From a virus (Duplodnaviria > Caudoviricetes), in IMG/VR virus record IMGVR_UViG_3300033463_000012: a stretch of 64,000 bases of DNA, one strand, 5' to 3'. Under the pieces are notes generated by a model. The model saw only the letters and a list, made by a program, of their open reading frames with translations, was not told the origin of the DNA and ran no database searches. Shown here in pieces: positions 1,469 to 55,704 of the stretch. A program made the position numbers and the translations under genes. How positions within the stretch are numbered: position 1 is the first letter of the stretch; every line of letters starts with the position of its first letter.

Positions 1469-1780
1469 ATGATAGCAGAGCCATTTGAGCAACAATTGTT
1501 TGTAAAAATCATTTCAAAGAAATTGGAAGAGTTCGGAATATCGCTTGTTAGTTGTCGCTATGAGTATGACTCGATTACTTCTACTCCTGTGAAGTTTAAT
1601 AATTTCATATATTTTATAGATTTTAGTGATGAAGATGAATTAAAGGTAGTGCACATCACCTACCCCAATTTTCCAGTTCCTATGCAAATTTCGTCTTTTA
1701 AGGAAAAATCAATGAAAGAAATAATCGAAAAGGTGACTAGATTCTTTGTAGAACATAAAGACGATTCCAGGTTGATCTGA
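1469..1780 (+). CDS. shared-helix-motif family protein (N-terminal motif FEQQLFVKIISKKL)
   Basis: ORF with GGAG upstream; family motif. Confidence 0.75.
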   Translation: MIAEPFEQQLFVKIISKKLEEFGISLVSCRYEYDSITSTPVKFNNFIYFIDFSDEDELKVVHITYPNFPVPMQISSFKEKSMKEIIEKVTRFFVEHKDDSRLI

Positions 1781-2130
1781 TGAGTTTCCAAACTTCACTG
1801 CTAATCAACATTCTGCAAAAGAAATTGGCAGAACATGGTTGGGAAATCGACATCAGTTTTGATTCAGTGGTTCCCGGTTGCACATTCTTTTATGTCTGGA
1901 CAAAAGATGATAAAATAATGTTCCGGATTCATGTGGAATTCAATGGAGATATCGGCCACGTGTTCATCAGAAAAATATGGAAGGACGGTGTATCTCATAA
2001 AATTCCTGACATCTGGTCCAAAGAGGAAAGCGAGCTGATCAACAAGACAATCGAAGCGATGGAAAACGAAAAACATCTCAAGACAAGGGTGAAGAAGAAG
2101 GATGTCTTGAATAGGATAAAGGGGAAATGA
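1780..2130 (+). CDS. shared-helix-motif family protein (FQTSLLINILQKKL)
   Basis: Overlapping stop/start with the previous gene; family motif. Confidence 0.75.
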   Translation: MSFQTSLLINILQKKLAEHGWEIDISFDSVVPGCTFFYVWTKDDKIMFRIHVEFNGDIGHVFIRKIWKDGVSHKIPDIWSKEESELINKTIEAMENEKHLKTRVKKKDVLNRIKGK

Positions 2131-3149
2131 TAGCTGCACAGGCATTCTTCACTCGCAGCAATGGTGGTGTTCGTGGGGACATGACACAGGACTTTTGGTT
2201 TCATGTCGGATTCAAGGACACTGACATAAAGATGATACAATATGCTAAGGACAATCCTGATGACGTGGACTTTGTCCTTTCTGGTCGGTCTCCTTTCCTT
2301 GACGATTTCATAGCCAGGGACATGATGGAATATCTTGACAAACGACCTGGCTGCAAACTCATCTTGATCGAAGGTGGTCGTTTCCCTGAATATCATTTTC
2401 CTGAGTCTGGACCTTGTCGTGAAATTCTGTCCCGAGTCAAGTTGTTTCTGCACAACTCCGAATTTCTGTCAGAAGATTGGGACGTAATTTCTCATACAGT
2501 GAAATCGAGTCAGATAAAGATGACAAATCTCAATGTATTCACTCCGAGTTTCCCTGACATCATTCCATTGGAAGAACGCTTGCCTAATGTGTTCATGTTC
2601 GGAGCGGTTTCGGAATACAAGGGAACATTGGACTTTTGGCACAACTTTGATTCCTACAAGAATGACAAATATGCCTTTGGTTCCGCAGGTTCAGTTGGTC
2701 CTCATGTCATGATGCAGAACAAGATTGAATATGTCAAGGCGCAGATGAATCAGCCACTGAACAAAAACATATTCAATTTCGTCGGTGCATACGAGAAGGG
2801 ATGCAAATGGATTGAATGGTTCCTTCCTCATACTCGGTTCGCATTGTTCGGTTGGAAGCCAAGGCCTTGTATGATCGAGGCACCTGAGTATTCCTTTCTT
2901 GAATGCATTGACAGAGGAGTTCCGGTTGTGGTCAGGAAGGACTGGTTGGACTCGATCAAGGTATTCGGGCGGAAACCTGACATTCAGAATTCGGGAATCA
3001 TCACCTTTGAAGATTGGTCAGAGTTGAAGGACTTGGACAAATACGAGCCAGACTACACTGACATCATTCAAAAACAGCGAGACTTCCTTTCCAAATGGTG
3101 GGGAAAATCCGTAGCGGAAAACTTGGAAAAACTGTTCAGCGAGGCATAG
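2127..3149 (+). CDS. GT-B glycosyltransferase, T4 alpha-glucosyltransferase-like
   Basis: FGAVSEYKG and APEYSFLECIDRGVPVVVRK resemble the T4 Agt GRTTTWKG and SLEYTHLELGACGTIPVFWK segments as recalled; lies among replication genes. Confidence 0.6.
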   Translation: MIAAQAFFTRSNGGVRGDMTQDFWFHVGFKDTDIKMIQYAKDNPDDVDFVLSGRSPFLDDFIARDMMEYLDKRPGCKLILIEGGRFPEYHFPESGPCREILSRVKLFLHNSEFLSEDWDVISHTVKSSQIKMTNLNVFTPSFPDIIPLEERLPNVFMFGAVSEYKGTLDFWHNFDSYKNDKYAFGSAGSVGPHVMMQNKIEYVKAQMNQPLNKNIFNFVGAYEKGCKWIEWFLPHTRFALFGWKPRPCMIEAPEYSFLECIDRGVPVVVRKDWLDSIKVFGRKPDIQNSGIITFEDWSELKDLDKYEPDYTDIIQKQRDFLSKWWGKSVAENLEKLFSEA

Positions 3150-3185
3150 AATAGTTATATTTGGCCTATAAGGAGAAAATCATAG

Positions 3186-4142
3186 ATGAGTGCTTCTGAC
3201 ATCTGGGTTGAAAAGTATCGCCCGTCTCACGTGAAGAATGTCGTCATGCCTGAACAATATCACAAGTTCTTTCAGGACATGGTGGACGAAGGTACATGCA
3301 AGAACGTGTTGCTTTACAGTTCCACCCCTGGTTCCGGGAAGACTTCTTTGGCCAAGGCGATTGTGAATGACCTCAAAGCCGACTGCAAATACATAAACAT
3401 TTCGGCTCAACGAGGCATCGATGTCCTAAGAGATGAAATCACCACCTTTGCGACCACCCAGTCATTTGTGGCCGATGGAAAGAAAATCATCATCTGTGAT
3501 GAGTTCGATGGAGCTACGGTCGCACTGCAGCAGGCACTTCGTGCAGCCATTGAAACCTACGAGAAGAATTGCAGATTCATTCTCACCTGCAATTACGTGG
3601 AAAAGATCATCCCGGCTCTGCGTGAAGGTCGACTGCAGATGTTCGACTTCAATTTCCAGGACGAGAAGTTCAGGAAGGAATTGCGGCCGAAGATGATCGA
3701 ACGTGTTTCCGGAATCCTCAAGCACGAGAATGTCGAATTCGAGCAAGAGGCAGTGAACGAGATAGTGGACAAAAACTATCCCTCGCTCAGAAAGATGTTG
3801 TCCATGGTTTCCAAGGTAGCCAGCATGTACGGGAAGGTTACCCTGGAGAACATATCCACATCCGAGACACTTCGACAGCAGTTGTACAAGTTGATCGAAG
3901 ACAAGGATTTGACGGGCGCGCGGAAGTTCGTCATAAACAACTCCTTGGACGTCGGCGAGCTGTATTCCCAGATGTGGCGGGAATGGGTGAACGACATGGA
4001 CATTCAAGTTCAGGCGGTGTTGATCCCGAAGCTGGCTACCTATCAGTATCAGCACAACTTCGTCTTGGACCCTGAGTTGAATTTCACCGCTTGCATCCTG
4101 GAAATCATCAGTGCACTCTGCGAGGTCAACGACAAGCAATGA
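3186..4142 (+). CDS. sliding clamp loader AAA+ subunit (T4 gp44 / RFC small-like)
   Basis: WVEKYRP, Walker A PGSGKT, Walker B IICDEFD, QQALR, RFILTCN. Confidence 0.93.
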   Translation: MSASDIWVEKYRPSHVKNVVMPEQYHKFFQDMVDEGTCKNVLLYSSTPGSGKTSLAKAIVNDLKADCKYINISAQRGIDVLRDEITTFATTQSFVADGKKIIICDEFDGATVALQQALRAAIETYEKNCRFILTCNYVEKIIPALREGRLQMFDFNFQDEKFRKELRPKMIERVSGILKHENVEFEQEAVNEIVDKNYPSLRKMLSMVSKVASMYGKVTLENISTSETLRQQLYKLIEDKDLTGARKFVINNSLDVGELYSQMWREWVNDMDIQVQAVLIPKLATYQYQHNFVLDPELNFTACILEIISALCEVNDKQ

Positions 4143-4666
4143 CCAGTTATGAGGTCTTCAAGATAATTCTCAACTTCAGAGCCAAGCACTGTGGTTGTGG
4201 AATCAGACTTCCTATTTGCGACAAGTGGGAAAGGGAAAACAGAAACCCGAAGTCGAGCATAATCTTCATCTGCAATCAATTGTCAAACTTGTCTCAAACC
4301 AAGGAAGACATTGAATTTTTCGTGGGTTTGGCTCATGTGAAGTTCGGTGATCCTTGGGAAAATATGAAAAAATTTCTTGAAAAAAACACTCCACTCTCCC
4401 TCAAGAAAGAGCTATATTTAAGAACAGAACAGGACAACAAGTCCTTGGACAAACTTCTGAAAACCTCCAATATGTCCCTGTATGACCTCTTCAAATCTCC
4501 TCCGGGTGGAAACTCGATAGCGACCGCCCTGCTGAGGAATTTGTTGATAAACCCGTGGTGCTACGTCAATCACCTCAACGTAGTGGACGGACTCAAACTC
4601 AAAAAGGATGAGGTGAAAACATTGCGCATAGTAAAGGAGATAACACATGCCAAGAAACAACATTGA
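4139..4666 (+). CDS. putative helicase loader (T4 gp59-like)
   Basis: Likely start MTSYEVFKIILNFRAKH resembles gp59 N-termini; sits directly upstream of gp32 as in T4. Confidence 0.5.
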   Translation: MTSYEVFKIILNFRAKHCGCGIRLPICDKWERENRNPKSSIIFICNQLSNLSQTKEDIEFFVGLAHVKFGDPWENMKKFLEKNTPLSLKKELYLRTEQDNKSLDKLLKTSNMSLYDLFKSPPGGNSIATALLRNLLINPWCYVNHLNVVDGLKLKKDEVKTLRIVKEITHAKKQH

Positions 4667-5516
4667 TTTTTCGTCCCTCAAAGCCCAGATTGACCAGATG
4701 TCGCATCGTGGTCCGAAGCGTCAGCCGTCAGACCCTCGCTTCTACGATCTCACTTTCCCTGAAGGCGAGACTCGTGCCACCGCGATCATCCGTTTCCTTC
4801 CTTCCAAGATTGGCGATCCTAACTGCTTCGTCAACGTGAAGTCGCACTGGTTCAAGTATTCGACCCCGGAAGGAACCCGCAACTTCTATGAACCCTGCCC
4901 TCGCACCATCGGTCATAAGTGCCCCATTTGTGACTACGCCTTCGCCCACAAGGACGACAAGGGGAAGATGGCCGGCGACGCCTTCATCACCAACATCATG
5001 GTGATCAAGGATCCCAACAAGCCCGAGAATGAAGGCAAGGTTTTCCTGTTCCGTTTCAAGAGGGACGTCTGGAAGAAGATTCAGCAGGTGATTTCTCCTG
5101 AAGACGGCATTGATGAACCCGCGAACATCTTTGACTTGGAAAGCGCTCCCAACCTCAAGTTGGTTTGCACCAAGCGTTCCGTTCCTGGTTTCGTCCGCCC
5201 TGTCGCTCGCTACGATGAATCCGCTTGGACTTCTCCCACCCCGATCATCATCAAGGGCGAGAAGATGTCCGAGGAGTTCTTGGACAGCATCAACGACAAG
5301 GTCTATTCCCTGGAAGAATTCATCGCTCCTGACAAGTTCAAGAGCTATGAAGAATTGCAGGGCAAGTTCGACCTCGCCGTGAACACCCTCTCGGAAGTTC
5401 CCAATGAAGCCGAAGCGCCTTCTGCAGAAATTCCGGAATCCTCCCCCAAGACTGACTCCAACAAGTTCGTGAAGGGTCAGGACACCGTCGGGGAAGATTT
5501 CTTTGACAACCTTTAG
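4647..5516 (+). CDS. single-stranded DNA-binding protein (T4 gp32-like)
   Basis: DPRFY, AIIRFLP, HWF, CPRTIGHKCPIC zinc site, NIMVIKDP..PENEGKVFLFRF, YDESAW, acidic tail ending DFFDNL. Confidence 0.93.
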   Translation: MPRNNIDFSSLKAQIDQMSHRGPKRQPSDPRFYDLTFPEGETRATAIIRFLPSKIGDPNCFVNVKSHWFKYSTPEGTRNFYEPCPRTIGHKCPICDYAFAHKDDKGKMAGDAFITNIMVIKDPNKPENEGKVFLFRFKRDVWKKIQQVISPEDGIDEPANIFDLESAPNLKLVCTKRSVPGFVRPVARYDESAWTSPTPIIIKGEKMSEEFLDSINDKVYSLEEFIAPDKFKSYEELQGKFDLAVNTLSEVPNEAEAPSAEIPESSPKTDSNKFVKGQDTVGEDFFDNL

Positions 5517-6305: not shown

Positions 6306-9300
6306 ATGGCCAATTCATACGATTACAACGAAGTTCAGCCGGGTGCATCTGACATTGACCGTGAGGCTTGGCCCGTCATGTATGACCCCTATGGGGACGA
6401 TGACGGGTTGAAGGAAGTATCAACCAAAGACACGAACACGGTGGACTTGTCGGGGAAGGGGACATCCAACAGCAAGTTGTCCGCGGACGTGAAGGTGAGC
6501 AAGCAGGAAAACAATGCCTTGAAGGCCTTGTCCGATGGCTTGTATGTGGCGGACAAATCACCTGTCCTGTCGATCAAAGGTTCAGAATTCATTGACGTTT
6601 CCTCGGCGGAGCCACAGCGTCCAGTCATTTCATTGAAGAAATCCGAAGATGAATCCAATGACCTCGTGGACAATGGTGGGCTTTATGTTCATGTTCCGGT
6701 GAAGGAAATTCAGGGTTCCGACACGGTGGACGTTTCCAAGGAAGATGACACTTGGTCAATAGATGTGAAACTTGACCCGAATCAAGGAAATGTCATTCTG
6801 TCCACCGAAAATGGACTGAAGGCGGAGATAGCTTCCGGGGTGATCACAGAGGTCGAGGGTTCCAATTCAATCTCGGCCACAAAAAGCGGGAATGTCTACA
6901 CTCTTGACACACTGATTTCGACCGCAACCGACAATGCCCTTCAATCCACGGAAAACGGGTTGTATGTTCCTAATACCGTGGTCCCTGAAGATTTCATCAA
7001 ATCCGTGGACGACACCGACTCGATCACCCTCACGGTTGACGAGAATGCAAAATTGACTGCAGATGTCAAGGTGGACAACACCAATCCTGGAAACGTGACT
7101 TTCTCCTTTACTCCGAATGGTTTGAAAGGCGAAGTCGAAATTCCTGCGGATTATGTCACTGGAGTTCAGGACACGGCCGACGTCAAGTTGTCAGTGAATG
7201 AAGGAATCCTGAGTGCAGAAATCGCTTCAGGGGTGATTCCTGAAATTCGTGGTTCTGAGTCAATAGACGTTCAGACTTCTGGGAACGTGAATGTAATCAC
7301 GACCAACATATCCAGTGCAGCTGACAATATGATTTCAGTTGCAAGTGGTGGCCTGTATGTTCCTCCGACCGAAATCCCAGATGTTCCTGTGAAGAGTTTG
7401 GTCGAAGGCAATTGTATTGAAATAACTGAAAATCCTTCTGGAACATTTGAAATAGGAACGAAAGTTTCAGAATTTTATGACAATGACCTGACAACCAAAT
7501 CCGATGGACTTTATGTAAGGGTTCCTGTAAAGGAATTCACCGAAGGAAATGGCATAGAAATCAATGACTATGGTGGTGAAGGGAATTTCACCATTGGACT
7601 CAAGGGCTATTCAATAGAAAACCTTGATGGTGAAAATGGCGTAAATGTTCAATCTGATGTCGATGAAACCAGTTGGACAATTTCAGCCAATATCTCGGAA
7701 GACGAGGGAAACAAGGTCGAAATCAGTGAAAATGACCAAGGTCTTTATGTAGGTCCAGAACTTCCCTCTGGTGGTTCAGTCGGCCAGGTGCTGAAGAAAA
7801 CCGCAAATGGTTCCGAATGGGGAGATGAACAAACTCAGTATGTCTCGGGAATCACAGACTCCAACACAATTTCCTTGGCTGTTGATCAAGGTCAGCTTTC
7901 CGCCTCTGCAAACATTTCCAATGAATCCGGAAACATCCTTGAGGACAGAAACGGTCTTTATGTTCCGAATTCAGTGATTCCCCAGGACTTCATTCGGTCG
8001 GTCGGAAACACTGATTCAATTTCCCTGAATGTGGATGCAAATGGGGAACTTACAGCTTCGGCCAGAATAGACACCAACAACCCCGGTAATGTTCACCTGA
8101 GCATCACTGAAGATGGCTTGGTGGCTTCTGCAGACATTCCCGAGGACTACATCAACAACGTGGTCGATTCGGAAACCGTTCATCTTTCAGTGGATGACGG
8201 GGACCTCTCGGCTTCGGCAAAGGTATCTTCAAAGGGAGACAACCAGACTGATCCCGCGAATGCCCTGGAAATCGAACAGGACGGCCTTTGGACTCCCACC
8301 CTCTACCTTGGACCATTCGATTCCTCGGCTCGTCCTTCTGAAGCGATAACTGGTCAATACATTTTCGACACTGACCTTGGATATTGTCTCTATCGTCATG
8401 GAGGTGCATGGGTCAACTCAACCGGCGCCATAGTCGAAGGAAACGTTGAACCCACAGGTCAGGCGGTGGATTGGCTGGTGAATCCGATGACCGCCTATGG
8501 AGACTTGCTCGTGGGTGGACCTAGCGGAACTCCAAGTGCAATGCATGTCGGGCCTTCTGGAGCCTATCTCAAATCCGGTGAAAATGGTCTTGAATGGGGA
8601 GAAGTGAATTCCCTGGTCCTTTCCGACCTGGCCGACAACACAGCCACCGTGATTGAGGATGGACAACATGATGGCCTCTATGTTCCTCCTAGCTCACTTG
8701 AAGGAATGATAACCACTGCAGGTGATTTGATTGCAGGTGACGCCAGTGGTGAACCTGATACATTGTCCAAGGGAACAGTCGGGCAAGTCCTTACCTCGAC
8801 CCAGAACGGAATTGAATGGCAAACCGGTATCCATGCACCCAATGTGGAAATCGCCTCAACCAACAGCACTGACTTGACCTTGTCCTCCCGTAACGCCAAG
8901 TGCCAAATCTACACTGACTCCTCTGAATCCATTTACATAAAGACTTCGGACGATGCACTTTCGGCCAAGATGATCAACATCATCTCCGAACAGGAATATG
9001 GCGACCCGGACCAGTATGGAAACAGGGCCCGGTATCAGTCCTATGTGCAAATTCTGGACACTTATGGCGTCTACATGGCGACGAACAATGGAACCATTAA
9101 CATTTCCAATTACTCGAACAACCTCAACTCCTACATCCAGATAACCAACCAGGGCTCGTCCAATATCAAAATCTACGGTCAGAACGGGTTGACTATCGGT
9201 GCTTTGAACGATAACTGCAAGACCTACTATGGCTGGAGCGACACCCTGATGGAAGGCGGTTTGGTCAACGTCAAGTCGAAGAGCAACACGATGACCATAG

Positions 9301-10370
9301 ACGGATACAGCAACACCTTCATTTACAGCCGAAACGGATATGTTCGTCTGGAAGGCAAAAACGGTATTTATCTGAACCCCAACACCAATGCCGGGGTATA
9401 CGCCAATACCAACAATGGAGGAAACCCGAACACCTCCTACTACGGCGCCTCGTTCTCTTTGACCACCTCCTCGTTCAACACGCAGACGATGTATATGGCC
9501 AACCACGGAACGGCGAGCGAAATCAGCTCCTCGATCGTGGTTTCACAGTCTTACGCCGGGGTTTCCATAGTATCGCAGAACCCCTATGATGGGACGTTCG
9601 TTGCGAAAATGACATACTCCTCGGAAGGCAGTCTCCAATTCGACAACTATCCTTCCGAATACGACGACACAAAGACCTACGAATTACTGGGTATTCAAAC
9701 CGACGATGGAACGGTCGACAAGGTATCCATGACGGATGCCTTCAACTCCGGTTCTCCGATTACCTCTTACGGCGACCTGATCTACGGCGACGCTTCGGGT
9801 ATCGCTTCGGCTCTCCCGATAGGAACCGAGGGGCAGGCTCTTGTTGTGGACTCCTATGGTCAAATCGCCTGGGAAGACAAACCCCGTTCTTGCCAGGAAA
9901 ACTATGCTTTCGTCAACTCCACCAACATCGAAAGTGCAGATGACTACAAGGGAAGATTGTTTGTTTCCCGGGTAATCTGCAACCACGACGGGAACTATTC
10001 GGAACTCGGGTTTGCCCTGAAATCTGGCACCACGGGCAAGGTAGGCATGGCGATATACGACGTGAACAGTGATCTTGTGGCACGGACGGAGCTGATCGAA
10101 ATTTCCAACCCGACAATAGATGGATATATCTACTGGCATGAAACCGAAAACGAATACGTTTTGCATGCCGGGGAAGAATACTACTTCGCGATATGGTTTG
10201 GTGATTACCCATATTCCAATACATTGCAGGTGTTCGCAAAGGTGGTCGACAGCTCCCTTGATGCCTTAATGATGGGGACGGTAATCGGTCAACAGTCGAT
10301 AACGGAAATGCCCACAACTCTTGGAACGCTGAACTATGAACGGTATTGCTTCCACATGTCAGCGAGGTAG
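6306..10370 (+). CDS. large fibre/virion protein 1 (1354 aa)
   Basis: Repeats of the type DSITLTVD..LTADVKVD..GLYVP; MT..GDL..G..G.P..L..G..GQVL modules; S/N/T-rich central region. Confidence 0.8.
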   Translation: MANSYDYNEVQPGASDIDREAWPVMYDPYGDDDGLKEVSTKDTNTVDLSGKGTSNSKLSADVKVSKQENNALKALSDGLYVADKSPVLSIKGSEFIDVSSAEPQRPVISLKKSEDESNDLVDNGGLYVHVPVKEIQGSDTVDVSKEDDTWSIDVKLDPNQGNVILSTENGLKAEIASGVITEVEGSNSISATKSGNVYTLDTLISTATDNALQSTENGLYVPNTVVPEDFIKSVDDTDSITLTVDENAKLTADVKVDNTNPGNVTFSFTPNGLKGEVEIPADYVTGVQDTADVKLSVNEGILSAEIASGVIPEIRGSESIDVQTSGNVNVITTNISSAADNMISVASGGLYVPPTEIPDVPVKSLVEGNCIEITENPSGTFEIGTKVSEFYDNDLTTKSDGLYVRVPVKEFTEGNGIEINDYGGEGNFTIGLKGYSIENLDGENGVNVQSDVDETSWTISANISEDEGNKVEISENDQGLYVGPELPSGGSVGQVLKKTANGSEWGDEQTQYVSGITDSNTISLAVDQGQLSASANISNESGNILEDRNGLYVPNSVIPQDFIRSVGNTDSISLNVDANGELTASARIDTNNPGNVHLSITEDGLVASADIPEDYINNVVDSETVHLSVDDGDLSASAKVSSKGDNQTDPANALEIEQDGLWTPTLYLGPFDSSARPSEAITGQYIFDTDLGYCLYRHGGAWVNSTGAIVEGNVEPTGQAVDWLVNPMTAYGDLLVGGPSGTPSAMHVGPSGAYLKSGENGLEWGEVNSLVLSDLADNTATVIEDGQHDGLYVPPSSLEGMITTAGDLIAGDASGEPDTLSKGTVGQVLTSTQNGIEWQTGIHAPNVEIASTNSTDLTLSSRNAKCQIYTDSSESIYIKTSDDALSAKMINIISEQEYGDPDQYGNRARYQSYVQILDTYGVYMATNNGTINISNYSNNLNSYIQITNQGSSNIKIYGQNGLTIGALNDNCKTYYGWSDTLMEGGLVNVKSKSNTMTIDGYSNTFIYSRNGYVRLEGKNGIYLNPNTNAGVYANTNNGGNPNTSYYGASFSLTTSSFNTQTMYMANHGTASEISSSIVVSQSYAGVSIVSQNPYDGTFVAKMTYSSEGSLQFDNYPSEYDDTKTYELLGIQTDDGTVDKVSMTDAFNSGSPITSYGDLIYGDASGIASALPIGTEGQALVVDSYGQIAWEDKPRSCQENYAFVNSTNIESADDYKGRLFVSRVICNHDGNYSELGFALKSGTTGKVGMAIYDVNSDLVARTELIEISNPTIDGYIYWHETENEYVLHAGEEYYFAIWFGDYPYSNTLQVFAKVVDSSLDALMMGTVIGQQSITEMPTTLGTLNYERYCFHMSAR

Positions 10371-11718: not shown

Positions 11719-11768
11719 AGGGGCTAAATTGATCAAAGAGGGTGGTCCATGAAGCAGGAGGACGGCCA

Positions 11769-44256: not shown

Positions 44257-44291
44257 TATAATATAATATCTTTTCTGGAAAGATGAGCAAA
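44257..44291 (-). promoter_or_regulatory. early promoter
   Basis: TTGCTC...AAAAGATATTATATTATACCTAGAACC. Confidence 0.75.
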
Positions 44292-47096: not shown

Positions 47097-47400
47097 ATCC
47101 ATCCAACATGTGTTCAAGTGTATTGAGGTTGTCCTTGTTTATGTACAGATGCATGCTGTAGTTGTAATAGCCAGAATGAGGAAGATGAACATGCAATATG
47201 ATGTTGTCTTTCTTCCCGGAATCGCACAGGATGTAGACGTAGTCATCTCTGGTCGCCTTTCTGACATCGGGATATTCAGCACGGAAGCAAGCATGACTTT
47301 TGTTGATATGATCGATTGTCCAACCACGTTCAATGGACCAATTCTTCATCTTGGTCACCACTATGTTGAAAACCAACTGTTGTTCAAATGTCACCGGCAT
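47077..47400 (-). CDS. shared-helix-motif family protein (FEQQLVFNIVVTKM)
   Basis: N-terminal motif. Confidence 0.7.
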   Translation of the reverse strand: MPVTFEQQLVFNIVVTKMKNWSIERGWTIDHINKSHACFRAEYPDVRKATRDDYVYILCDSGKKDNIILHVHLPHSGYYNYSMHLYINKDNLNTLEHMLDGYVRIPK

Positions 47401-47707
47401 AGGTGTCCAAAAGGTGTTCGATTTCATTCAGGTTTTCCTTGCCGATTTCGAAGATGTCTCCTTGACTACGACTGTTCGGGAATATAATGACCAATGTCGT
47501 GCGTCCAAATTCATCTGACCAGAAATTCGTTTCGATGATGACCTTTATATGACCGTCCTTGCGATATATGTCATCTTTGTCGCAAACCACATCGAACCTT
47601 GATTCCGTTTTATGAACATATCTTGTGGTCCAGCTATGATTTTCGGCCCACTGCTTCACCTTGTTTGCTGCAATCTTGTAGATCAGCTCTTGTTCAAATT
47701 CATTCAT
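47384..47707 (-). CDS. shared-helix-motif family protein (FEQELIYKIAANKV)
   Basis: N-terminal motif; paralog of 47077. Confidence 0.7.
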   Translation of the reverse strand: MNEFEQELIYKIAANKVKQWAENHSWTTRYVHKTESRFDVVCDKDDIYRKDGHIKVIIETNFWSDEFGRTTLVIIFPNSRSQGDIFEIGKENLNEIEHLLDTYAGDI

Positions 47708-48045
47708 CGCGCCCACCTGTCCAAATAATGAGGAATCAACTTTATGCTTGATTTGTCCTCAATGTAGAATATCCCGATTTTTTCATAATTTTCCGTTTCG
47801 ATCACCTTCAAATAGACACCATCGGGACAGCTGATGTAGGGGTCGGGAACAGCACCGGCACAGTCAGGGATTTCAAGGTCGGGCTTGTATTGAATCACCA
47901 CCCTCTTTTTCCTGTCCTTGTTCTCGAAAGCATAACCTACTGTTGGACACGATATGACAGATACATATTTCTTGTCCTTGTTCCATTCATCGAATTTGCC
48001 CAAGGCGATTCTCATAAGCAACTGATGTTCGTAGCTGATGCTCAT
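47704..48045 (-). CDS. shared-helix-motif family protein (YEHQLLMRIALGKF)
   Basis: N-terminal motif. Confidence 0.7.
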   Translation of the reverse strand: MSISYEHQLLMRIALGKFDEWNKDKKYVSVISCPTVGYAFENKDRKKRVVIQYKPDLEIPDCAGAVPDPYISCPDGVYLKVIETENYEKIGIFYIEDKSSIKLIPHYLDRWAR

Positions 48046-48401
48046 AGCTGCAGATTCCTCATCGTTCCCATGTAGTTTCCACCGAACGTCAACCAATGGT
48101 TTATTACAATTTCAAGTTGTTCGGCTTCACTTGGTTCCCTTACGGTGTAGAAGAAATTGTAGCAATTCATGTTCCTGTCGCAGTTCAACAAATCCTCGTA
48201 GTCCTTGAAAGTCAACTGAACGTCCACACCTTCGAGAGGATCGTTTGGTATGCACTTCAGGCACATCTTTGCATAATTGCAGAATGAGACCTCGAACATG
48301 TCTTCATAGTCATATTCGATTTCCCAGCCACCTCTGGTCGCGATGTCCTTGACTACATATTTGACCATGTTGAAAAGCAAACCAGTTCTGAACTTGTACA
48401 T
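48042..48401 (-). CDS. shared-helix-motif family protein (FRTGLLFNMVKYVV)
   Basis: Start MYKFR after GGAG and promoter at 48425. Confidence 0.7.
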   Translation of the reverse strand: MYKFRTGLLFNMVKYVVKDIATRGGWEIEYDYEDMFEVSFCNYAKMCLKCIPNDPLEGVDVQLTFKDYEDLLNCDRNMNCYNFFYTVREPSEAEQLEIVINHWLTFGGNYMGTMRNLQL

Positions 48402-48424
48402 AATAGGCAATTCTCCGTATTTAC

Positions 48425-48505
48425 AATATAATATCTTTTCTGCCATTTGACCAAGAAAAAGTTGTCAAAAGATGATACACCCTGGCCAAAGTTTATTATA
48501 TTATA
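48425..48505. promoter_or_regulatory. divergent early promoters
   Basis: TATTATATT on minus (48425-48433) and TATTATATTATA on plus (48494-48505). Confidence 0.7.
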
Positions 48506-48529: not shown

Positions 48530-49180
48530 ATGTTCAAACACCCGTGGCACCCGAATATGGACAAACTCCTTGATATGTTCAAGGAAGTTGGAATCAGCAC
48601 ACAGTGGTCTGTTCAGTTTTATACAAATGACGAAAGGAAACAATTCATAACCCTGATCAAACCTTATTCTAAAAATCGATCAGTTTTTCCTGGCGTGAAC
48701 ATGGTATACATGATAGGCAAAAAATCAATTGTCTTCGAAAGAATACCATTCAGAATATGGAACCGTGACCCATTCGCGAAATTGAAAATGAGGATCATCA
48801 GGAAGTATTACAATTTTGCCCTGGACAGAATAAACTATGAATTTTCTGGCCCTCATTTCTCTGAAAATCTTTTGATGAACATGATAAGGTCCGAACTGTT
48901 GAACAAATATGGACTCAAAACCAGTTTCATTCCGAACAACAACTCATCGTCCTGTTCGAAAATTGTCTTCAATGAATCTCGCTTGAACAAAACTGACATT
49001 TGGGGAACTGGCTATTTGGTCTATTTTGAGCGGAGCTGGTTCAACCTCGGACACTTTCCTATTTGCAAGATAGTGACTGATCGCAAGGAATTCACCTTCA
49101 AACCGAACATGAACTTGAAAAGAAACGTCAAGAAATTCGTAAAATGGTTGAACAACACGTCTGAAAAGGATTTTGTATGA
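48530..49180 (+). CDS. shared-helix-motif family protein (FSENLLMNMIRSEL)
   Basis: Tandem paralog of 49177 (RIW..DP, LV.FER, N.K.NVKK). Confidence 0.75.
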   Translation: MFKHPWHPNMDKLLDMFKEVGISTQWSVQFYTNDERKQFITLIKPYSKNRSVFPGVNMVYMIGKKSIVFERIPFRIWNRDPFAKLKMRIIRKYYNFALDRINYEFSGPHFSENLLMNMIRSELLNKYGLKTSFIPNNNSSSCSKIVFNESRLNKTDIWGTGYLVYFERSWFNLGHFPICKIVTDRKEFTFKPNMNLKRNVKKFVKWLNNTSEKDFV

Positions 49181-49842
49181 TCGTCTCGACCCAAAACACC
49201 AAGTGGCGATATTATTTCCTGCAGAGAAACGATTTCATCAAGACACAAGGTGAAATACTTCAGCGTGTTGTCAATGATATGTATGACAAATATGATCTGA
49301 TGTGCGTTTCGGTGGAATGTCATCGGTATTACAGTTTGTCATTCATGTATAGGAATCAGAAAACAACCCCACCAATAAGCTACCTTGTATTTGAAGAACA
49401 CAAGCATTCTGTCGTCTTTAATGGGTGGATCAGAATTTGGCGCCATGATCCTTTGATTTCCCTGAAGTTGAAACTGATTCAGTGGTTGATAAAGAGGAAT
49501 TTGAACTTTCAGCAGTGGAAAATAGACAGTCCTTTTTTCACCGATGAACTTCTGGTCAATATGATTCGGCTGGAAATGAAGACCAAATATGGAATAGAAA
49601 CCAGGTTCGAGCCAAAGAAGGGTGATCGCATGCATTCGATTCTTGACTACACCCTTCCTGGGAAAAAGCAAGAAGACTGGTCGCTGGTTTGGTTCGAAAG
49701 GTTTTTAGGCAAACCCGTATGCGTCATCTTCAAAGGTCAAGGAATGGTTTTGACGAAGATTCGACCTGGACGGAATTTCAAAAAGAATGTGAAGAAATAC
49801 GTTGACTATATTGTAGAATATGGAAAAACCCATAACACATGA
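49177..49842 (+). CDS. shared-helix-motif family protein (FTDELLVNMIRLEM)
   Basis: Tandem paralog of 48530. Confidence 0.75.
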   Translation: MIVSTQNTKWRYYFLQRNDFIKTQGEILQRVVNDMYDKYDLMCVSVECHRYYSLSFMYRNQKTTPPISYLVFEEHKHSVVFNGWIRIWRHDPLISLKLKLIQWLIKRNLNFQQWKIDSPFFTDELLVNMIRLEMKTKYGIETRFEPKKGDRMHSILDYTLPGKKQEDWSLVWFERFLGKPVCVIFKGQGMVLTKIRPGRNFKKNVKKYVDYIVEYGKTHNT

Positions 49843-50278
49843 GTTTGAACTGAAACTGCTGGTGAACATGATCAAGGCCAGGGTTCAGGAATTGGTCGGC
49901 GATTCTCATGTGTCGAGCTGGATGCACCAAAAAACAGTGTACATGGTGGAGTGCACATGGAACAATGGAATAGATGAATACGAAATGCTGATGTTTCTGA
50001 GAAAAACCAAGGTGGCCTATATCTTCAAAACATCGATTTCCAAAGTCATTGGATATACGGTGTACAAAGGATATTCTGGAATCAATGAAGTTTTCAAGAT
50101 GTTCAATGAGCTGCTTTCCTTGACTGTGGATTTGATCAACACTCGCAAAGACAATGAATCACTGCAGAAACAGTTGGACATACTGGTTAATGACTTCGAG
50201 CGACACTGGGAGATGATCAGATTGGAACAAGGGATTGATCTGATACCTCCGGAATGTTGTTCAGATGTCAAGGATTAG
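49820..50278 (+). CDS. shared-helix-motif family protein (FELKLLVNMIKARV)
   Basis: N-terminal motif. Confidence 0.7.
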   Translation: MEKPITHEFELKLLVNMIKARVQELVGDSHVSSWMHQKTVYMVECTWNNGIDEYEMLMFLRKTKVAYIFKTSISKVIGYTVYKGYSGINEVFKMFNELLSLTVDLINTRKDNESLQKQLDILVNDFERHWEMIRLEQGIDLIPPECCSDVKD

Positions 50279-52538
50279 GAATCAATCCAGGGTGATAGTA
50301 GAACAGCTGATGGAAACCTGAGGCATCCGGTTCGTAGCAAAGAGTGCCATAAGGATAGGTTCCGACGGATGAATTCATTATGATTGTCTTTGTGGGAATG
50401 GAGATGTGTTCATCACCAAATCTCACATTCAATAGTGCACCGCCATTGATTCCCAGAGTGAACATTCTGGCTTCTTCACCAAACCAGTGAGGAGTATCAT
50501 GCCCCAATCCAACTGAATAGTGACCAACCACAAATTCTTCGTAATCTCCAATGGTCATGCCTGAACCGAATACATATTTGTTTCTGGCGTCTTTGTTCGA
50601 TTCTGCAGTGATGGTCACGGTATTGTTCGAACCGAAGACATAAATATCCGGGAATTTTCCAACATTGTCGTCCAAACCGATATTGTTTCCAGATCCTAGT
50701 ATGTATTTGTTAGTCGGTATTTTTGACCACAAATTGCTATTGTATGCCTGCCCAATTACATTCATGTTTCCTAGAACGTAGTTTTTTGTTTGAGAATCAT
50801 GGAACAAATTGGTATCAGGTGTCAGTTCATAACCTATTGCATTGCATGAACCTAATACATAGGAATCTTCGATTTCTCCATTGATTCTTGGAACAGGTGT
50901 ACCTGGATTGCACCACGAATTGTCTACCTGATTGTTACGACCAAATATCACTGTTCTGGAGGAAAAATCATTTTCACTGGAAAATGCTTCGCCTGCATAG
51001 ATTTTGTTGTTATTTCCAACAGCTACTGTCAATTCAGGATATAGTTCAAACTCACCACTTGCATCTGTTCCAACTGGATATGCAACATTGATGGAACCGC
51101 CAATGAGCAAGGCATCTTCCAATCTTCTATGATAACTTTGAGTGGCATATTCACTCTTGTTTACGAGTGAATTCAGACCGGCTGCGGCGATCACACTCAT
51201 TACATAGTTTTCTTTATTGCAACCAGCTGTGGCTACAAGAGATTCTTCTGCATATATGGAAGATGCAGAATTACCATTTTCTGCCCAAAATGACGATTGT
51301 ATACGCAACTGATCCTTGTTTGGACCTTGATATGCAGCGAAAGCAGTATTCACATTGATGTCATTTGTGTTTATTACCGACAGGAATGAACTATTGTTTG
51401 TTATATGAAAAGTCTGACTATCGATTGAACCAGCATAAAGGTTTATTCCTAAATTTCCAGCCACCACTTCTTCTGGATTAAAAGATGAATCTGTTGTAGT
51501 TATGTCAAAAATATTGAGTGATGGCCGGCCAAAACCTGCATAAACCACTTCATTCGTGGTAGATGATTTTCCAATATATGAGAATGGTTTGAATGAACAA
51601 AGTGTATCTCTGATCTGTATTGCTGCACCATTGTCTGTGGCTATCTCATCTCCCAACACCAATCTGTTCTTGGAATACAGCCGCATATCCACTTCGTGGT
51701 CAGGATATTCCCCCACCTTCGTCCAATAGAGATTGTCAAAGGTCACGTTCTGAACTTCCGTGTCATCGGGGTTGAAACCAATCTGGAAGCTGATAGCCAT
51801 TGAATTCGACTGACCCTGATTGTTCGCGAAAAGAACAACCGGGGTGGCCAAGCAAATCATCGCCACAGGAACAGGTTCACCGCCAATATTCGTAAACAGC
51901 AGAACCTTGTTGAACCGAATGTCACCGCAAATGAAAGTGGAACTGCCCCAGGTGGATTGACATCTCAAATAGACGGTGTAATGTGCATAGGCAAGAGGAT
52001 CCTGTCCTTCTCCGGGGTCCTCGGTCGAAGTGCCGTCATAACGAACATTCTTGTACAAAAGTGATTCAGACCAAGCGGCCAAAGGCAATTGTGTTGGCTG
52101 TGTTCCACTTTCCACGAAGGAACTACCGGAAACTGATCCTAATTTGAAAGATGTGTTTCCATTCTGACCTACGACTATCGTATTTCCTACATGTGGAACT
52201 TCAGCAGTCATTGACCATTCAGGATTCTTTGCCCAACCGGATGTTTCCGTCACTGGAACATATCCTGTGGAATCCCATTGAATCAGTGAATATTTGCTTC
52301 CATTCACAAGGAAACCACCATTGAAATCCCCAGGCGCCTGCTGATTGTGGGAAGGGGTAGTCGTTCCATCGTCCATGTCGGGGCCGGGGTTGGCTTCCGG
52401 GATGGTCATCACTGTGCCGTCGGTCAGGTGGTCGTAGATCGGGAGGGACCACTTGATGTCGAATGTGGGCGTTTCACCGGAGGTCGCAATGTCGTTCAAC
52501 CCCTTGGACAATAACCAAACTAGCGTATTTTGGGCCAT
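50268..52538 (-). CDS. structural tail/baseplate-associated protein with G..N.I beta-repeats
   Basis: Repeated VLGSCNAIG/VLGNMNVIG/ILGSGNNIG/VFGSNN; CTAAATT at 52560-52566. Confidence 0.65.
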   Translation of the reverse strand: MAQNTLVWLLSKGLNDIATSGETPTFDIKWSLPIYDHLTDGTVMTIPEANPGPDMDDGTTTPSHNQQAPGDFNGGFLVNGSKYSLIQWDSTGYVPVTETSGWAKNPEWSMTAEVPHVGNTIVVGQNGNTSFKLGSVSGSSFVESGTQPTQLPLAAWSESLLYKNVRYDGTSTEDPGEGQDPLAYAHYTVYLRCQSTWGSSTFICGDIRFNKVLLFTNIGGEPVPVAMICLATPVVLFANNQGQSNSMAISFQIGFNPDDTEVQNVTFDNLYWTKVGEYPDHEVDMRLYSKNRLVLGDEIATDNGAAIQIRDTLCSFKPFSYIGKSSTTNEVVYAGFGRPSLNIFDITTTDSSFNPEEVVAGNLGINLYAGSIDSQTFHITNNSSFLSVINTNDINVNTAFAAYQGPNKDQLRIQSSFWAENGNSASSIYAEESLVATAGCNKENYVMSVIAAAGLNSLVNKSEYATQSYHRRLEDALLIGGSINVAYPVGTDASGEFELYPELTVAVGNNNKIYAGEAFSSENDFSSRTVIFGRNNQVDNSWCNPGTPVPRINGEIEDSYVLGSCNAIGYELTPDTNLFHDSQTKNYVLGNMNVIGQAYNSNLWSKIPTNKYILGSGNNIGLDDNVGKFPDIYVFGSNNTVTITAESNKDARNKYVFGSGMTIGDYEEFVVGHYSVGLGHDTPHWFGEEARMFTLGINGGALLNVRFGDEHISIPTKTIIMNSSVGTYPYGTLCYEPDASGFHQLFYYHPGLIPNP

Positions 52539-52589: not shown

Positions 52590-52625
52590 CAGGTACACTT
52601 TGGTCAAAAAGATATTATATTATAC
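52590..52625 (+). promoter_or_regulatory. early promoter
   Basis: GTACACTTTGGTCAAAAAGATATTATATTATAC then CTGGAGG. Confidence 0.75.
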
Positions 52626-52647
52626 CTAGACCAACCTGGAGGCAACT

Positions 52648-52986
52648 ATGAAAAAGTTCATCAAAGGCATCGTGAATCTTCTGGCCCCAATAAAGCCGGA
52701 AATCTACTGCTACCTCATCTTCGCCGTCATCACATCACTTGGAATCATTGAAGTGAATGCGGCTGTTTACGCGGCACTTTTTGTCTATGCCATTGTCCGA
52801 GTCCTCAAGGTGATTGGCGCCGTGATGATGGTCATGTGCGTGAAGAATCACTACGAAGAACTCATCGAACGCTACAATGAGAAGCTGGAGGAAACTGAAG
52901 ACGAGGAAGAAAGGGAATCGATTTGCAACCTCATTGAAACCGCAAGAAAGGTGCACGAAAACTTCACCAAGAACGAAGAGGTTTGA
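52648..52986 (+). CDS. membrane protein
   Basis: Two hydrophobic segments, acidic C-terminus. Confidence 0.7.
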   Translation: MKKFIKGIVNLLAPIKPEIYCYLIFAVITSLGIIEVNAAVYAALFVYAIVRVLKVIGAVMMVMCVKNHYEELIERYNEKLEETEDEEERESICNLIETARKVHENFTKNEEV

Positions 52987-52988
52987 AA

Positions 52989-53768
52989 ATGAACCTCAAA
53001 GAAATCTCGAAAGAACTCCTCGACAACGGAATTACCTTCAAAAAGCATCGTGGAAACCTGATCACCGGCCTGTCTGTTCATGGAAAGACAAACCTGAACT
53101 TTCGCGGGGAACATGACTTCAGTCTTTCCTTCTGCAATGCGTTCGGCCATGTCTTTGCCGCCTTCTACATATCTGAATTCTTTCACGGGGTGGATCCTAC
53201 TTGCAACTTCGACGATCCTACGAATATGTATGCAAGTTGGGAAAAGTATGAAATTGACTTTTCCCTCATGAATGACGAAAACTGTCCGAGGGATTGGACG
53301 AACGGTTCGGACTGGTATTCCCTTTGGAAGGCAGAAAACACTGAAACTGTCTCAGACTTCGTCAAGAGGATTTTAGGGAAGTGGGAAGAACTCTGCAAGG
53401 TCATTCAGGAAACGAGAAAGAAGGAAGTTTCTGATCAGCTGGCCTTTAAAATCATCGAAGCCAGCGTGACCAATTTCGTCAACAAGCATGAAAATCCTGT
53501 CGTGGAAAAGGTGAATAGGAAGGCAAAGTGCAATGTTGACGGTCTGACTCTGATGTTGGAATGGACGGGATCAACTGCCAGACATCCTCTTCGTGTGGGC
53601 ATTCGGGTTTCTGACAAGGAGAATTTCGGAAATGCAGTAGAACCGTTGGAACCAAATGTCATGACGTTCAACTGGAAGTTTGATCCCAAGCGAAACGTGG
53701 AAAAGACGTTGGAAAGTGTAGTGCAGAAATACAAAGAGATGACAAATGATTTACGAAACATTCAATGA
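52989..53768 (+). CDS. shared-helix-motif family protein, distant paralog of 28380/29164
   Basis: MNLKEISKEL..NGITF...RG; VSDQLAFKIIEASV. Confidence 0.7.
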   Translation: MNLKEISKELLDNGITFKKHRGNLITGLSVHGKTNLNFRGEHDFSLSFCNAFGHVFAAFYISEFFHGVDPTCNFDDPTNMYASWEKYEIDFSLMNDENCPRDWTNGSDWYSLWKAENTETVSDFVKRILGKWEELCKVIQETRKKEVSDQLAFKIIEASVTNFVNKHENPVVEKVNRKAKCNVDGLTLMLEWTGSTARHPLRVGIRVSDKENFGNAVEPLEPNVMTFNWKFDPKRNVEKTLESVVQKYKEMTNDLRNIQ

Positions 53769-54399
53769 AATCGAAAAGATATTAAATGAATCAAACATAA
53801 AATTCCACACCGGCGGTGGACCAACTGTCGAATACTATGCATATAGTGCAGAATTGAGTGGCGACATAAAAATAGTGCACGTTGAGTTTAATGTGACCTA
53901 CTTTATGGAAATCCGATATGAACCTACAGTAGGTGGTTCCGTTCGTGAATGGCAAATAACCGCTGAATCCCTAGGAATCGAAAAGAATGGGGTAAACACT
54001 ACCATAACATTCAACGGAAAACTTGAACCGAAATACATCAATTGCAGTAAAGTCATATTTAAGTATTCATTCGGGACACCGCAACCTGTAATCGACATTT
54101 TGAAGGAATTCATCAAAAATTTCAAGCAAACAAAGTTTCAAGAGAAATTGATGTATTCCATGATGTTGAAGAAACTAAAAACCACCAACAGGTTTGCAGA
54201 GGTCAAAGGAGACAACAACAATATCATAAAATGTTACAGCAAAAACAAAACGACGGATTTGGTTGTTTTGTGCGAAATAAGGATGAACTCAATAAGGTTC
54301 ATTCGTTATGAATCCGAGAAGGAAACCGTATTCACTGGTGATTCTCAGGACATTTTGAAGAAAGCATTTGACTGCATAGACAAGCGAGAATATCTATGA
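53746..54399 (+). CDS. shared-helix-motif family protein (FQEKLMYSMMLKKL)
   Basis: Internal motif. Confidence 0.7.
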   Translation: MIYETFNEIEKILNESNIKFHTGGGPTVEYYAYSAELSGDIKIVHVEFNVTYFMEIRYEPTVGGSVREWQITAESLGIEKNGVNTTITFNGKLEPKYINCSKVIFKYSFGTPQPVIDILKEFIKNFKQTKFQEKLMYSMMLKKLKTTNRFAEVKGDNNNIIKCYSKNKTTDLVVLCEIRMNSIRFIRYESEKETVFTGDSQDILKKAFDCIDKREYL

Positions 54400-54432: not shown

Positions 54433-54465
54433 TCCTTGTCGGGGATCCCATGAAGGGATTTTTTT

Positions 54466-55173
54466 TTAGAAACATTCTTCGATCAGGGAATTCAGCTTCG
54501 CCCTGACCTTGTCAAGAACTGCCTGACCTGATGCCTCGCTCATATCCGCGGTGTTGTGGTCATACATCCAATCGACCAAGAACTCCATTGAATCATCGAA
54601 CCAAGTCTGAACGATTCTGGCTTCTTCATTTTCTTCGTCCGGGTCAATGAAAGTGTGATACAGGCCTTTCTCCAAGATGATGTCCATTAGGTAACCTTCG
54701 GCTTCCTCTTCGAAGTCGGTGCCCTTGTCCTCGCTTTCGAATAGATCAGGTCGTTCGTCCATAAATTCTTCCTTGTCCTTTCTGTTCATCAAATACATAT
54801 AAAATTCCAGCTCGCTTTTGATCTTGTCCCGCCACTTGGAATCAAACTTGTAGTTCCTGCAGTTGGTCAGTAATTCAGAAAGCAGAGCCGAGTCGTATAT
54901 TCCGTTGTCTTCGTCCGAGGGAAAGAACTCGATGTCATCCAAGTCGGTCTGAATTTTCTCAATCCCTTCCTTCACATTCTTGTAATACCAATCTGCAAAG
55001 GGACCATATTCGATTTTTCTAGGTTCACGTCCGGTGACTTCCTTGAAGATTTCGTCCAATTCCTCTCTTGTCCGATTTTCAAAACAATCCTGAACGTCAC
55101 GCTTGGTCGCGGATTCAATGTTTGACAATTTCCCACGAACTACATGATGACCAGGAAAATATCTTTTTGCCAT
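54466..55173 (-). CDS. late acidic protein; C-terminal domain homologous to 17603..17935
   Basis: CTAAATT at 55190-55196; GGAGG RBS. Confidence 0.7.
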   Translation of the reverse strand: MAKRYFPGHHVVRGKLSNIESATKRDVQDCFENRTREELDEIFKEVTGREPRKIEYGPFADWYYKNVKEGIEKIQTDLDDIEFFPSDEDNGIYDSALLSELLTNCRNYKFDSKWRDKIKSELEFYMYLMNRKDKEEFMDERPDLFESEDKGTDFEEEAEGYLMDIILEKGLYHTFIDPDEENEEARIVQTWFDDSMEFLVDWMYDHNTADMSEASGQAVLDKVRAKLNSLIEECF

Positions 55174-55211
55174 ATAGGATCCTCCAAGTAATTTAGCCTT
55201 CTTTCTGCTGC

Positions 55212-55318
55212 ACTCTCCCTGGCTGTACAGGAGCCATTCTGAGCCAGTTTTACCTAGGGGTAGTAAGTTATAGCTACCTTTGCAGAAAATGGCTCAGAAG
55301 CCACCGCTGGAGCTCAGG
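55212..55318 (-). repeat. dispersed ~110-bp element, copy 6
   Basis: Minus-strand core GGTAGCTATAACTTACTACC at 55259-55278; TTGCAGAAAATGGCTCAGAA shared with copy 4; CTCCCTGGCTGT..AGGAGCCA shared with copy 1. Confidence 0.85.
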
Positions 55319-55704
55319 TAAGCATCTATTCTGGCCTTTGCTATCTGAGCAGTATTTTTCAGGAAGTCCAAGGCCTCTTTGATCAGAACTTTGTCATCCT
55401 GGTCGAATATAACATATTTTGACTTTGCTACCCCGTTGTCGTATCTGTAAATGAGGATAGCGGGAATTTCTCCATATTTTCCGAACATGACACTAAATTC
55501 GATGTTCAAACCACTTGCATTCGGGTATTGAAGTGGTGTTGTTTCGATTTCTATCGCCGGGTCGTTCAATACGAACACTCTCCAATCGGATTCCTTCAAT
55601 TTCTCGGCAATGATGTTTCTTGCCAATTTCATCTCAAAGGACGAATAGGAATCTATGAAAATCCCTTTGTCTTCATAGAGTTTCGGGTCGTATTTCTTGA
55701 TCAT
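55294..55704 (-). CDS. shared-helix-motif family protein (FEMKLARNIIAEKL)
   Basis: Near-N-terminal motif. Confidence 0.75.
   Translation of the reverse strand: MIKKYDPKLYEDKGIFIDSYSSFEMKLARNIIAEKLKESDWRVFVLNDPAIEIETTPLQYPNASGLNIEFSVMFGKYGEIPAILIYRYDNGVAKSKYVIFDQDDKVLIKEALDFLKNTAQIAKARIDAYLSSSGGF

Follow-up and report, generated by a model that had tools for sequence, protein, structure and literature searches.

A window of 64,000 nucleotides (nt) from IMG/VR virus record IMGVR_UViG_3300033463_000012, which belongs to a T4-like phage with a contig of 182,555 bp, harbors an unusually large family of small genes. The family is real and consists of about 25 copies of one small protein domain marked by a conserved helical motif; the 26 genes assigned to it span 13.6 kb or 21% of the window. 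Weighing the evidence below, we think it probable, with considerable room for doubt, that these ~24–26 paralogs of a lineage-restricted domain of ~100 residues are early host-interaction proteins which diversified on a common scaffold.

The family was initially proposed in a sequence-only reading, which listed ~27–29 open reading frames (ORFs) sharing the motif. Its recurrence in these ORFs is borne out by counts against randomized sequences. The strict form of the motif, [FY]x3[LF]x2[NK][IM][ILVM]x3[LVMF], occurs in 13 of the 426 ORFs of at least 45 amino acids (aa), and all 13 are on the earlier list, while 200 composition-preserving shuffles yielded a mean of 0.33 matches and a maximum of 3. 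A loosened form gives 37 matches in 34 ORFs as compared to 13.5 matches in shuffles.

Profile searches, which had been proposed as a check, separate the members from decoys (reversed or shuffled proteins) by many orders of magnitude. A seed hidden Markov model (HMM), built only from the 13 strict-motif ORFs using the 110-residue segment which starts just upstream of the motif, recovers four further listed ORFs (38834, 47384, 29164, and 43091, named here by their start positions) with E-values of 5.5e-5 to 4e-3, the best decoy reaching 0.12. Iteration within the window converges at 19–20 ORFs, and a pooled HMM of 74 distinct sequences, including genes of related contigs, detects 20 window ORFs at E < 1e-3. 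Pairwise phmmer searches link ORFs 39730, 42561, and 43627 to 39230 or 43091, and 52983 to 29164. Finally, a helix-only HMM trained solely on genes of the relatives ranks 18 window ORFs above its best decoy, among them 42093 and 53746. The predicted family size is thus corrected rather than overturned: 24 firm members and two marginal but probable ones (42093 and 53746) are retained, whereas ORF 32016 as well as 31287 and 61184, the latter two already described as weak matches, fail every test. Two previously listed starts, 39745 and 52989, correspond to ATGs inside the longer ORFs 39730 and 52983 and match public gene calls. The members are the following (values are E-values unless indicated otherwise):

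1469–1780, plus strand: single domain, 103 aa, motif at residue 6, in the RNase H operon; strict motif, pooled HMM 7.1e-15, helix-only HMM 2.3e-4.
1780–2130, plus strand: single domain, 116 aa, motif at residue 3; strict motif, pooled HMM 6.6e-16.
26979–27500, minus strand: 173 aa, N-terminal extension and family domain, motif at residue 89; strict motif, pooled HMM 7.6e-6.
28380–29132, minus strand: subfamily B, two-domain, motif variant CRRKLVKNIM at residue 140; pooled HMM 2.6e-5, phmmer 2.7e-77 to 29164.
29164–29880, minus strand: subfamily B, two-domain, motif variant at residue 131; seed HMM 5.3e-4 (not in seed), pooled HMM 1.1e-4.
38043–38843, minus strand: 266 aa, 145-aa N-terminal region and family domain; strict motif, pooled HMM 1.1e-9.
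38834–39160, minus strand: single domain, 108 aa; seed HMM 5.5e-5 (not in seed), pooled HMM 1.7e-12.
39230–39748, plus strand: subfamily A, ~80-aa N-domain and family domain; strict motif, pooled HMM 2e-10, N-domain HMM 1.1e-19.
39730–40305, plus strand: subfamily A, probable start at ATG 39745; phmmer 8.9e-19 to 39230, pooled HMM 1.8e-3.
40292–40801, plus strand: 169 aa, motif YEMKLAYRILSKKF at residue 83; pooled HMM 9e-7, helix-only HMM 1.5e-6.
41546–42106, minus strand: subfamily A; strict motif, pooled HMM 1.4e-9, N-domain HMM 2.7e-32.
42093–42560, minus strand: marginal, inside the subfamily A array, short tail of 67 aa; loose motif, helix-only HMM 0.058 (above all decoys), pooled HMM 0.59.
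42561–43100, minus strand: subfamily A; phmmer 1.4e-6 to 43091, N-domain HMM 2.9e-27, pooled HMM 0.047.
43091–43681, minus strand: subfamily A; seed HMM 4e-3 (not in seed), pooled HMM 3.8e-8.
43627–44235, minus strand: subfamily A, degenerate motif whose first position lacks the aromatic residue; phmmer 2.2e-7 to 43091, N-domain HMM 4.9e-25.
46755–47117, minus strand: single domain, probable start MSGFQS; strict motif, pooled HMM 1.6e-10, ortholog in relatives 51–56% identical.
47077–47427, minus strand: single domain, probable start MPVTFEQ; strict motif, pooled HMM 3e-19.
47384–47716, minus strand: single domain; pooled HMM 1.6e-20, modeled with AlphaFold2 (scores given below), ratio of nonsynonymous to synonymous substitution rates (dN/dS) 0.18.
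47704–48096, minus strand: single domain, probable start MSISYEH; pooled HMM 5.6e-16, ortholog 81–85% identical.
48042–48446, minus strand: single domain, probable start MYKF (48401); strict motif, pooled HMM 1.3e-17.
48530–49180, plus strand: subfamily D, 105-aa N-terminal region and family domain; strict motif, pooled HMM 8.3e-8, no ortholog in the relatives L001, L002, or L008.
49177–49842, plus strand: subfamily D; strict motif, HMM 3.8e-7, phmmer 1.9e-18 to 48530.
49820–50278, plus strand: 152 aa, longest tail (144 aa); strict motif, pooled HMM 1.1e-9.
52983–53768, plus strand: subfamily B, probable start at ATG 52989; phmmer 6.3e-5 to 29164, window HMM 2.1e-3, N-domain HMM 3.4e-54.
53746–54399, plus strand: marginal, motif FQEKLMYSMMLKKL at residue 131; helix-only HMM 0.062 (above all decoys), pooled HMM 0.097.
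55294–55704, minus strand: single domain with a 22-aa leader; strict motif, pooled HMM 4.3e-12, modeled with AlphaFold2.

In line with the earlier description, the motif lies at the N-terminus in 11 members and behind an N-terminal domain or region in 15. Extra N-terminal domains are found in subfamilies A, B, and D as well as in 38043 and 26979. Subfamily A (39230–44235) carries a second domain of ~85 aa at its N-terminus, which is recognized across six window genes (HMM E-values 1e-19 to 1e-32) and matched no known family, and subfamily B (28380, 29164, and 52983) has its own, different N-terminal domain of ~130 aa. In the minus-strand array 46755–48446, the longest ORFs are too long for five genes, and the likely starts are motif-proximal ATGs; the resulting N-termini MYKF, MSISYEH, MNEFEQ, MPVTFEQ, and MSGFQS match the gene calls of the relatives.

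The central question is whether the motif is a tag attached to diversified, unrelated domains, as first suggested, or part of a domain. From the start of the motif to the C-terminus, all 26 members measure 67–144 residues (median 105), with or without an N-terminal domain. Furthermore, the alignment column with the highest information content is not the motif Phe (3.9 bits) but an aromatic residue in a C-terminal helix (4.06 bits), which is Trp in 48 of the 71 sequences not gapped at this position (74 aligned). With an HMM of this C-terminal helix built from the relatives, the C-termini of window members outscore both those of non-members (P = 4e-6) and their own shuffles, and the difference persists for the 14 members without an ortholog in the training set (P = 3.8e-4). 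On a helical wheel derived from the alignment columns, the hydrophobic positions of the motif helix span ~220 degrees, as would suit a helix packed against a sheet on one side and a helix on the other. Among 8000 candidates, none carried the domain in a longer, fused form, which constitutes weak evidence.

These findings are complemented by AlphaFold2 models of 47384 and 55294, two distant members drawn from the two largest sequence clusters. Both are predicted to fold as a helix followed by five strands and a second helix, with a predicted local distance difference test score (pLDDT) of 78 and a predicted template modeling score of 0.74 for 47384, and a pLDDT of 64 for 55294. In the models, the motif forms the first helix of a compact domain, ranks among the most confident parts, and lies beside the C-terminal amphipathic helix on one face of a five-stranded antiparallel sheet. 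The variable alpha/beta region which had been noticed behind the helix thus stands as the common plan. Taken together, the fixed distance to the C-terminus, the co-conserved C-terminal helix, the compact models with shared structural neighbors, and the mostly hydrophobic helix speak against a tag on unrelated domains; they argue for the motif being the first helix of a predicted domain of ~100 aa which always terminates the protein. A homodimer prediction for the 47384 domain with a 74-row alignment scored 0.01 against a mark of 0.42, which gives no verdict and is not evidence either way.

The strongest competing explanation retains the helix as a shared docking or oligomerization element which joins many domains to one phage or host partner, or to each other, so that the family would function as an adaptor set. 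Conservation is by far highest in the helix, with paralog identities of 27% as compared to 12% elsewhere, and the claim that members are unalignable outside the motif holds between subfamilies: a tail-only HMM reaches other subfamilies at decoy level only, and tail-only profile-profile comparisons (hhalign) among ten subfamilies perform no better than reversed controls. Conserved polar positions (Asn, Lys, or Arg at +7 and Lys at +12), together with a median net charge of +2 in the helix versus −2 in the tail, could mark a common surface. The basic helix would then be the interface to a common partner such as the host RNA polymerase, the ribosome, or a phage hub, while the sheets recruit targets, a specific version which we likewise regard as improbable. 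However, the fixed C-terminal spacing and the co-conserved C-terminal helix, the placement of the modeled helix within a compact domain, and its largely hydrophobic circumference, inferred from the columns and resembling that of a buried helix, all count against an adaptor, and whole-gene duplication explains equal-sized tandem genes more simply. In addition, the proposed link to the MoxR/VWA or SprT genes yielded nothing except proximity. The adaptor explanation is therefore unlikely, and it keeps some weight mainly because of the conserved polar positions. If true, it would describe a combinatorial system of ~25 members whose mechanism is undescribed for phages.

The fold comparison which had been called for was carried out for both models; they agree in topology, but it yielded no diagnostic match. 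The nearest solved structures shared by the two models are frataxin/CyaY, the C-terminal domain of Med17, the C-terminal domain of T4 MotA, Nqo15, the TriTu immunity protein (Z 6.0–7.5), and, more weakly, type III secretion chaperones (Z 5–6.2). Frataxin/CyaY is the best match of 47384 (Z 8.1, root-mean-square deviation (rmsd) 2.5 over 87 residues) and reaches Z 7.1–7.7 with 55294, a range which is non-diagnostic. It shares with the models the order of an N-terminal helix, a five-stranded sheet, and a C-terminal helix, but shows no match to the family at the sequence level, neither in Pfam at E-values up to 1 nor among Protein Data Bank (PDB) sequences at E-values up to 10. Moreover, the first helix of frataxin carries an acidic ridge, whereas that of the family is net basic (median +2). 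Foldseek found nothing better than E = 0.02 in the PDB, and matches in BFVD comprise only uncharacterized phage proteins including phage G gp573 (best E-value 2.6e-3). Searching the ESM Atlas by shape returned unnamed clusters first, followed by DUF7674, DUF2510, and YbjN at TM-scores of 0.53–0.58 (YbjN 0.57); by sequence, only unnamed clusters were retrieved.

The appearance of MotA among these neighbors raises the possibility that the family represents very distant relatives of its DNA-binding C-terminal domain and thus phage transcription or DNA-binding factors. The MotA domain ranks among the top structural neighbors of both models, one at Z 7.7 (rmsd 3.6 over 86 residues) and the other at Z 7.3–7.4 (rmsd 2.5 over 84 residues), again in a non-diagnostic range. 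Furthermore, the phage belongs to the same broad group as T4, the motif helix is basic, and subfamily A has a similar size and a two-domain plan. Yet models lacking a true match typically give such Z values, frataxin, Med17, and others score equally well, and neither the Pfam matches of the 74 members nor the PDB-sequence search, even at permissive thresholds, contained a MotA family or chain. The MotA C-terminal domain is a saddle-shaped “double wing” with three helices interspersed with six strands (PMC2988021), while the models display two terminal helices and five strands; a MotA-type N-terminal five-helix domain is not evident in the family either. Finally, isoelectric points (pI) ranging from 4.5 to 9.7 are unlike those of a uniform DNA binder. 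We consider this relationship very unlikely.

Neither 10 full-length members nor the complete set of 74 domain sequences revealed a recurring family in Pfam, PHROGs, or PADLOC. The best single Pfam hits stay below curated cut-offs, and the best PADLOC hit (E = 2.1e-4) concerns one of the 74 members only. As PDB sequences also gave no consistent match, the initial impression that no described family is involved is confirmed. When 1.84 billion cluster representatives were searched with the family profile, only this phage and its near relatives were retrieved, apart from one unrelated repeat protein, and two word-index searches concur with this restriction. Literature searches found no description of the family or the phage lineage. 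As far as these searches reach, this is an undescribed domain family confined to a lineage of 180–193 kb phages from the ruminant gut.

The genes were originally described as lying in operons behind early promoters. Reading of the intergenic regions revealed a phage promoter motif, a 23-nt element with 8 sites at up to 3 mismatches versus 0 expected, whose core ATTATATTATA occurs at 15 sites at up to 1 mismatch versus 2.3 expected (positions 442, 6201, 18533, 25892, 26913, 28345, 31288, 32966, 36217, 44257, 48422, 48495, 52614, 56597, and 60737). The aligned sites exhibit an A-rich upstream stretch, a −35 box TTGACC, TTGATA, or TTGGTT (TTGAYM), a spacer of ~17 nt, and a −10 box TATTAT, with TATTATATTATA(CCTAGA) following the spacer. 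A scan of 36.5–56 kb with the generic sigma70 consensus showed no enrichment (30 sites versus 32 expected), and this promoter class escaped generic scanning. All 26 members lie downstream of a promoter-like site or a looser copy of it, while the baseplate-hub (Phage_base_V) gene at 40802–41536 is preceded by CTAAAT instead. The elements leading member operons are:

442–452, plus strand: promoter (core match) leading RNase H (478–1353, identified by Pfam) and members 1469 and 1780.
28339–28361, minus strand: promoter-like element (23-mer and core) leading 27504–28319 and member 26979.
44251–44273, minus strand: promoter-like element (exact 23-mer) leading the subfamily A array.
44297–44321: terminator-like hairpin which ends the preceding operon.
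48422–48505: divergent promoter pair with core ATTATATTATA, 48422–48432 on the minus strand for the 48042–46755 array and 48495–48505 on the plus strand for 48530–50278.
52608–52630, plus strand: promoter-like element (23-mer and core) leading 52648, 52983, and 53746.
56591–56613, minus strand: promoter-like element (23-mer and core) leading 55701–56567 and member 55294.

Because the promoter core at 48422–48432 falls within the long ORF 48042, this gene probably starts at MYKF (48401). The promoter-like element is real and of sigma70 type, while the designation “early” has the standing of an analogy. The early promoters of T4 are sigma70 promoters of very high strength, and its early regions are rich in non-essential genes of unknown function (PMC2988021). 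From this likeness in promoter type and region, we infer that the family genes are pre-replicative.

Promoter type also bears on the idea that the proteins are chaperone-like or virion-associated accessory factors of the type III secretion chaperone or YbjN kind, which would escort phage proteins. Apart from the structural hits to both groups, this idea draws on the position of the arrays, which adjoin structural genes, namely the baseplate-hub gene and a 756-aa protein without Pfam match (50268–52538, minus strand). The structural scores are weak, though, and neither YbjN nor type III chaperones were matched by sequence. Moreover, the members are preceded by promoters of the RNase H type and not the CTAAAT type found before structural genes, and their copy-number turnover among close relatives would be unusual for assembly factors. 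Such a role consequently appears hardly probable.

This turnover is most apparent around the 756-aa protein, which anchors the variable array and borders it in all relatives. Between this protein and the DUF5661 gene, relatives contain 7, 11, or 12 members in one direction, while the window contains 5 members plus a three-gene cassette on the opposite strand which is missing from the relatives. Other cassettes (52648–54399) are window-specific as well, and member 55294 stands alone where relatives have five. Entire cassettes are present or absent between close relatives. Since the 756-aa protein itself shows 81% identity to its counterpart in one relative and 44% in two others, it resembles a rapidly evolving protein with a structural or host-recognition role.

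Twelve ortholog pairs display dN/dS values of 0.17–0.35 (dN 0.04–0.34), as opposed to 0.04–0.19 for seven neighboring non-family genes. Ortholog identity amounts to 87% in the helix and 76% in the tail. Judging from these comparisons, purifying selection maintains a family whose sequences change several times faster than those of neighboring core genes. Codons at conserved motif positions are mixed (Phe: nine TTC, eight TTT; Leu: nine TTG, six CTG, four CTT, two CTC). Because synonymous codons vary freely, motif conservation acts on the protein, and DNA-level homogenization or a recombination site as its cause is ruled out. Purifying selection on orthologs, the excess of strict motifs, and the separation of members from decoys leave next to no probability that a common amphipathic helix merely recurs by chance in small unrelated ORFs, a view already refuted for the core set even though the loosened pattern also arises at random and three listed ORFs fail all tests.

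The putatively pre-replicative promoters, the plastic location, copy turnover, relaxed purifying selection, pI spread, and the combination of constant helices with a variable sheet are best matched by a role as small binders. In this scenario, the family expanded by duplication and divergence within plastic regions of a T4-like phage of the ruminant gut and is transcribed from strong sigma70-type promoters of the type shared with the replication gene RNase H. The predicted fold is a two-layer sandwich of helix, five strands, and helix with frataxin-like topology, in which the two helices may serve as constant scaffold while sheet and loops provide a variable surface (pI 4.5 to 9.7). Each paralog could then bind a separate host or competitor target soon after infection, in the service of host takeover or counter-defense.

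Several points weigh against this interpretation. Between subfamilies, similarity beyond the two helices is not demonstrable by sequence, so that the case for sheets of common origin has to be made from architecture, gene order, and two models. Mixed-subfamily alignments underlie both of these, the 55294 model is poor (pLDDT 64), and structural matches at Z 7–9 fall into the tool-reported range typical of models lacking a true match. Core packing alone leaves the polar helix positions (Asn/Lys/Arg at +7 and Lys at +12) unexplained. Finally, the role of a binder is drawn by analogy.

Among known systems, the plastic (hyperplastic) regions of T4-type phages are the closest parallel, as they likewise hold small, functionally uncharacterized genes controlled by strong sigma70-type promoters, are flanked by conserved core and structural genes, and vary in content among close relatives (PMC2988021). 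In contrast to these regions, about one quarter of the genes in the 64 kb studied here belong to one paralogous family, and no sequence relation between the family and T4 early proteins was found. T4 itself is not known to have a comparable family expansion. The family thus extends the known phenomenon of plastic-region early genes, whereas the domain itself is undescribed. Tandem immunity or inhibitor arrays such as those of TriTu also consist of small alpha+beta proteins encoded by diverged tandem paralogs, but the window contains no accompanying toxin genes and there is no sequence relation, so the likeness is one of genomic behavior and general fold. The capsid targeting sequence of T4 internal proteins is a short N-terminal tag on unrelated proteins; here, 15 of the 26 members carry their motif internally (residues 80–149).

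If the proteins act on host factors, the family would be an unusually large, self-contained series of natural variants of one small scaffold with ~25 copies per genome, and a comparative series for studying how phages diversify proteins for host takeover or counter-defense, as relatives carry different sets. Its value is limited by the restriction to a single uncultured rumen phage lineage and by the putative nature of its function. Independently of function, the family illustrates how fast recognizable sequence can be lost, the alignable parts being the two terminal helices, which bears on the annotation of unknown phage genes.

Relatives of the phage, 180–193 kb in size, are found in ruminant gastrointestinal metagenomes. 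Neither the array nor the adjoining 756-aa protein was matched among INPHARED phage records by near-identity DNA and protein searches, and a scan of IMG/VR with the 756-aa protein found no relative. The nearest UvsW sequences share ~35% identity and occur in T4-like pelagiphages and cyanophages. Gene lists of the contig flanks (10 kb on each side) show no additional arrays of ~100-aa genes. Besides RNase H, Pfam identified the following genes in the window:

3186–4142: clamp-loader gp44.
4647–5516: gp32.
18817–20367: UvsW.
30139–31230, minus strand: MoxR ATPase.
34682–36307, minus strand: DUF2201/VWA protein.

Other features of the window include three very large paralogous proteins of 1354, 1001, and 750 aa encoded on the plus strand (6306–10370, 11742–14747, and 14762–17014), with mutual phmmer E-values of 1e-63 to 1e-16; the 1354-aa protein has no Pfam match. 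Two small paralog pairs, 17603–17935/54466–55173 (phmmer E = 1.6e-5) and 58518–58760/58757–59185 (5e-4), show no kinship to the motif family. The promoter site at 25892 is followed not by an ORF but by a candidate tRNA-like sequence (25800–25900, minus strand). Located between operons at ~1354–1460, ~29900–30100, and ~55180–55290, a repeat of ~100 nt contains nested inverted repeats and the core GGTAGCTATAACTTACTA.

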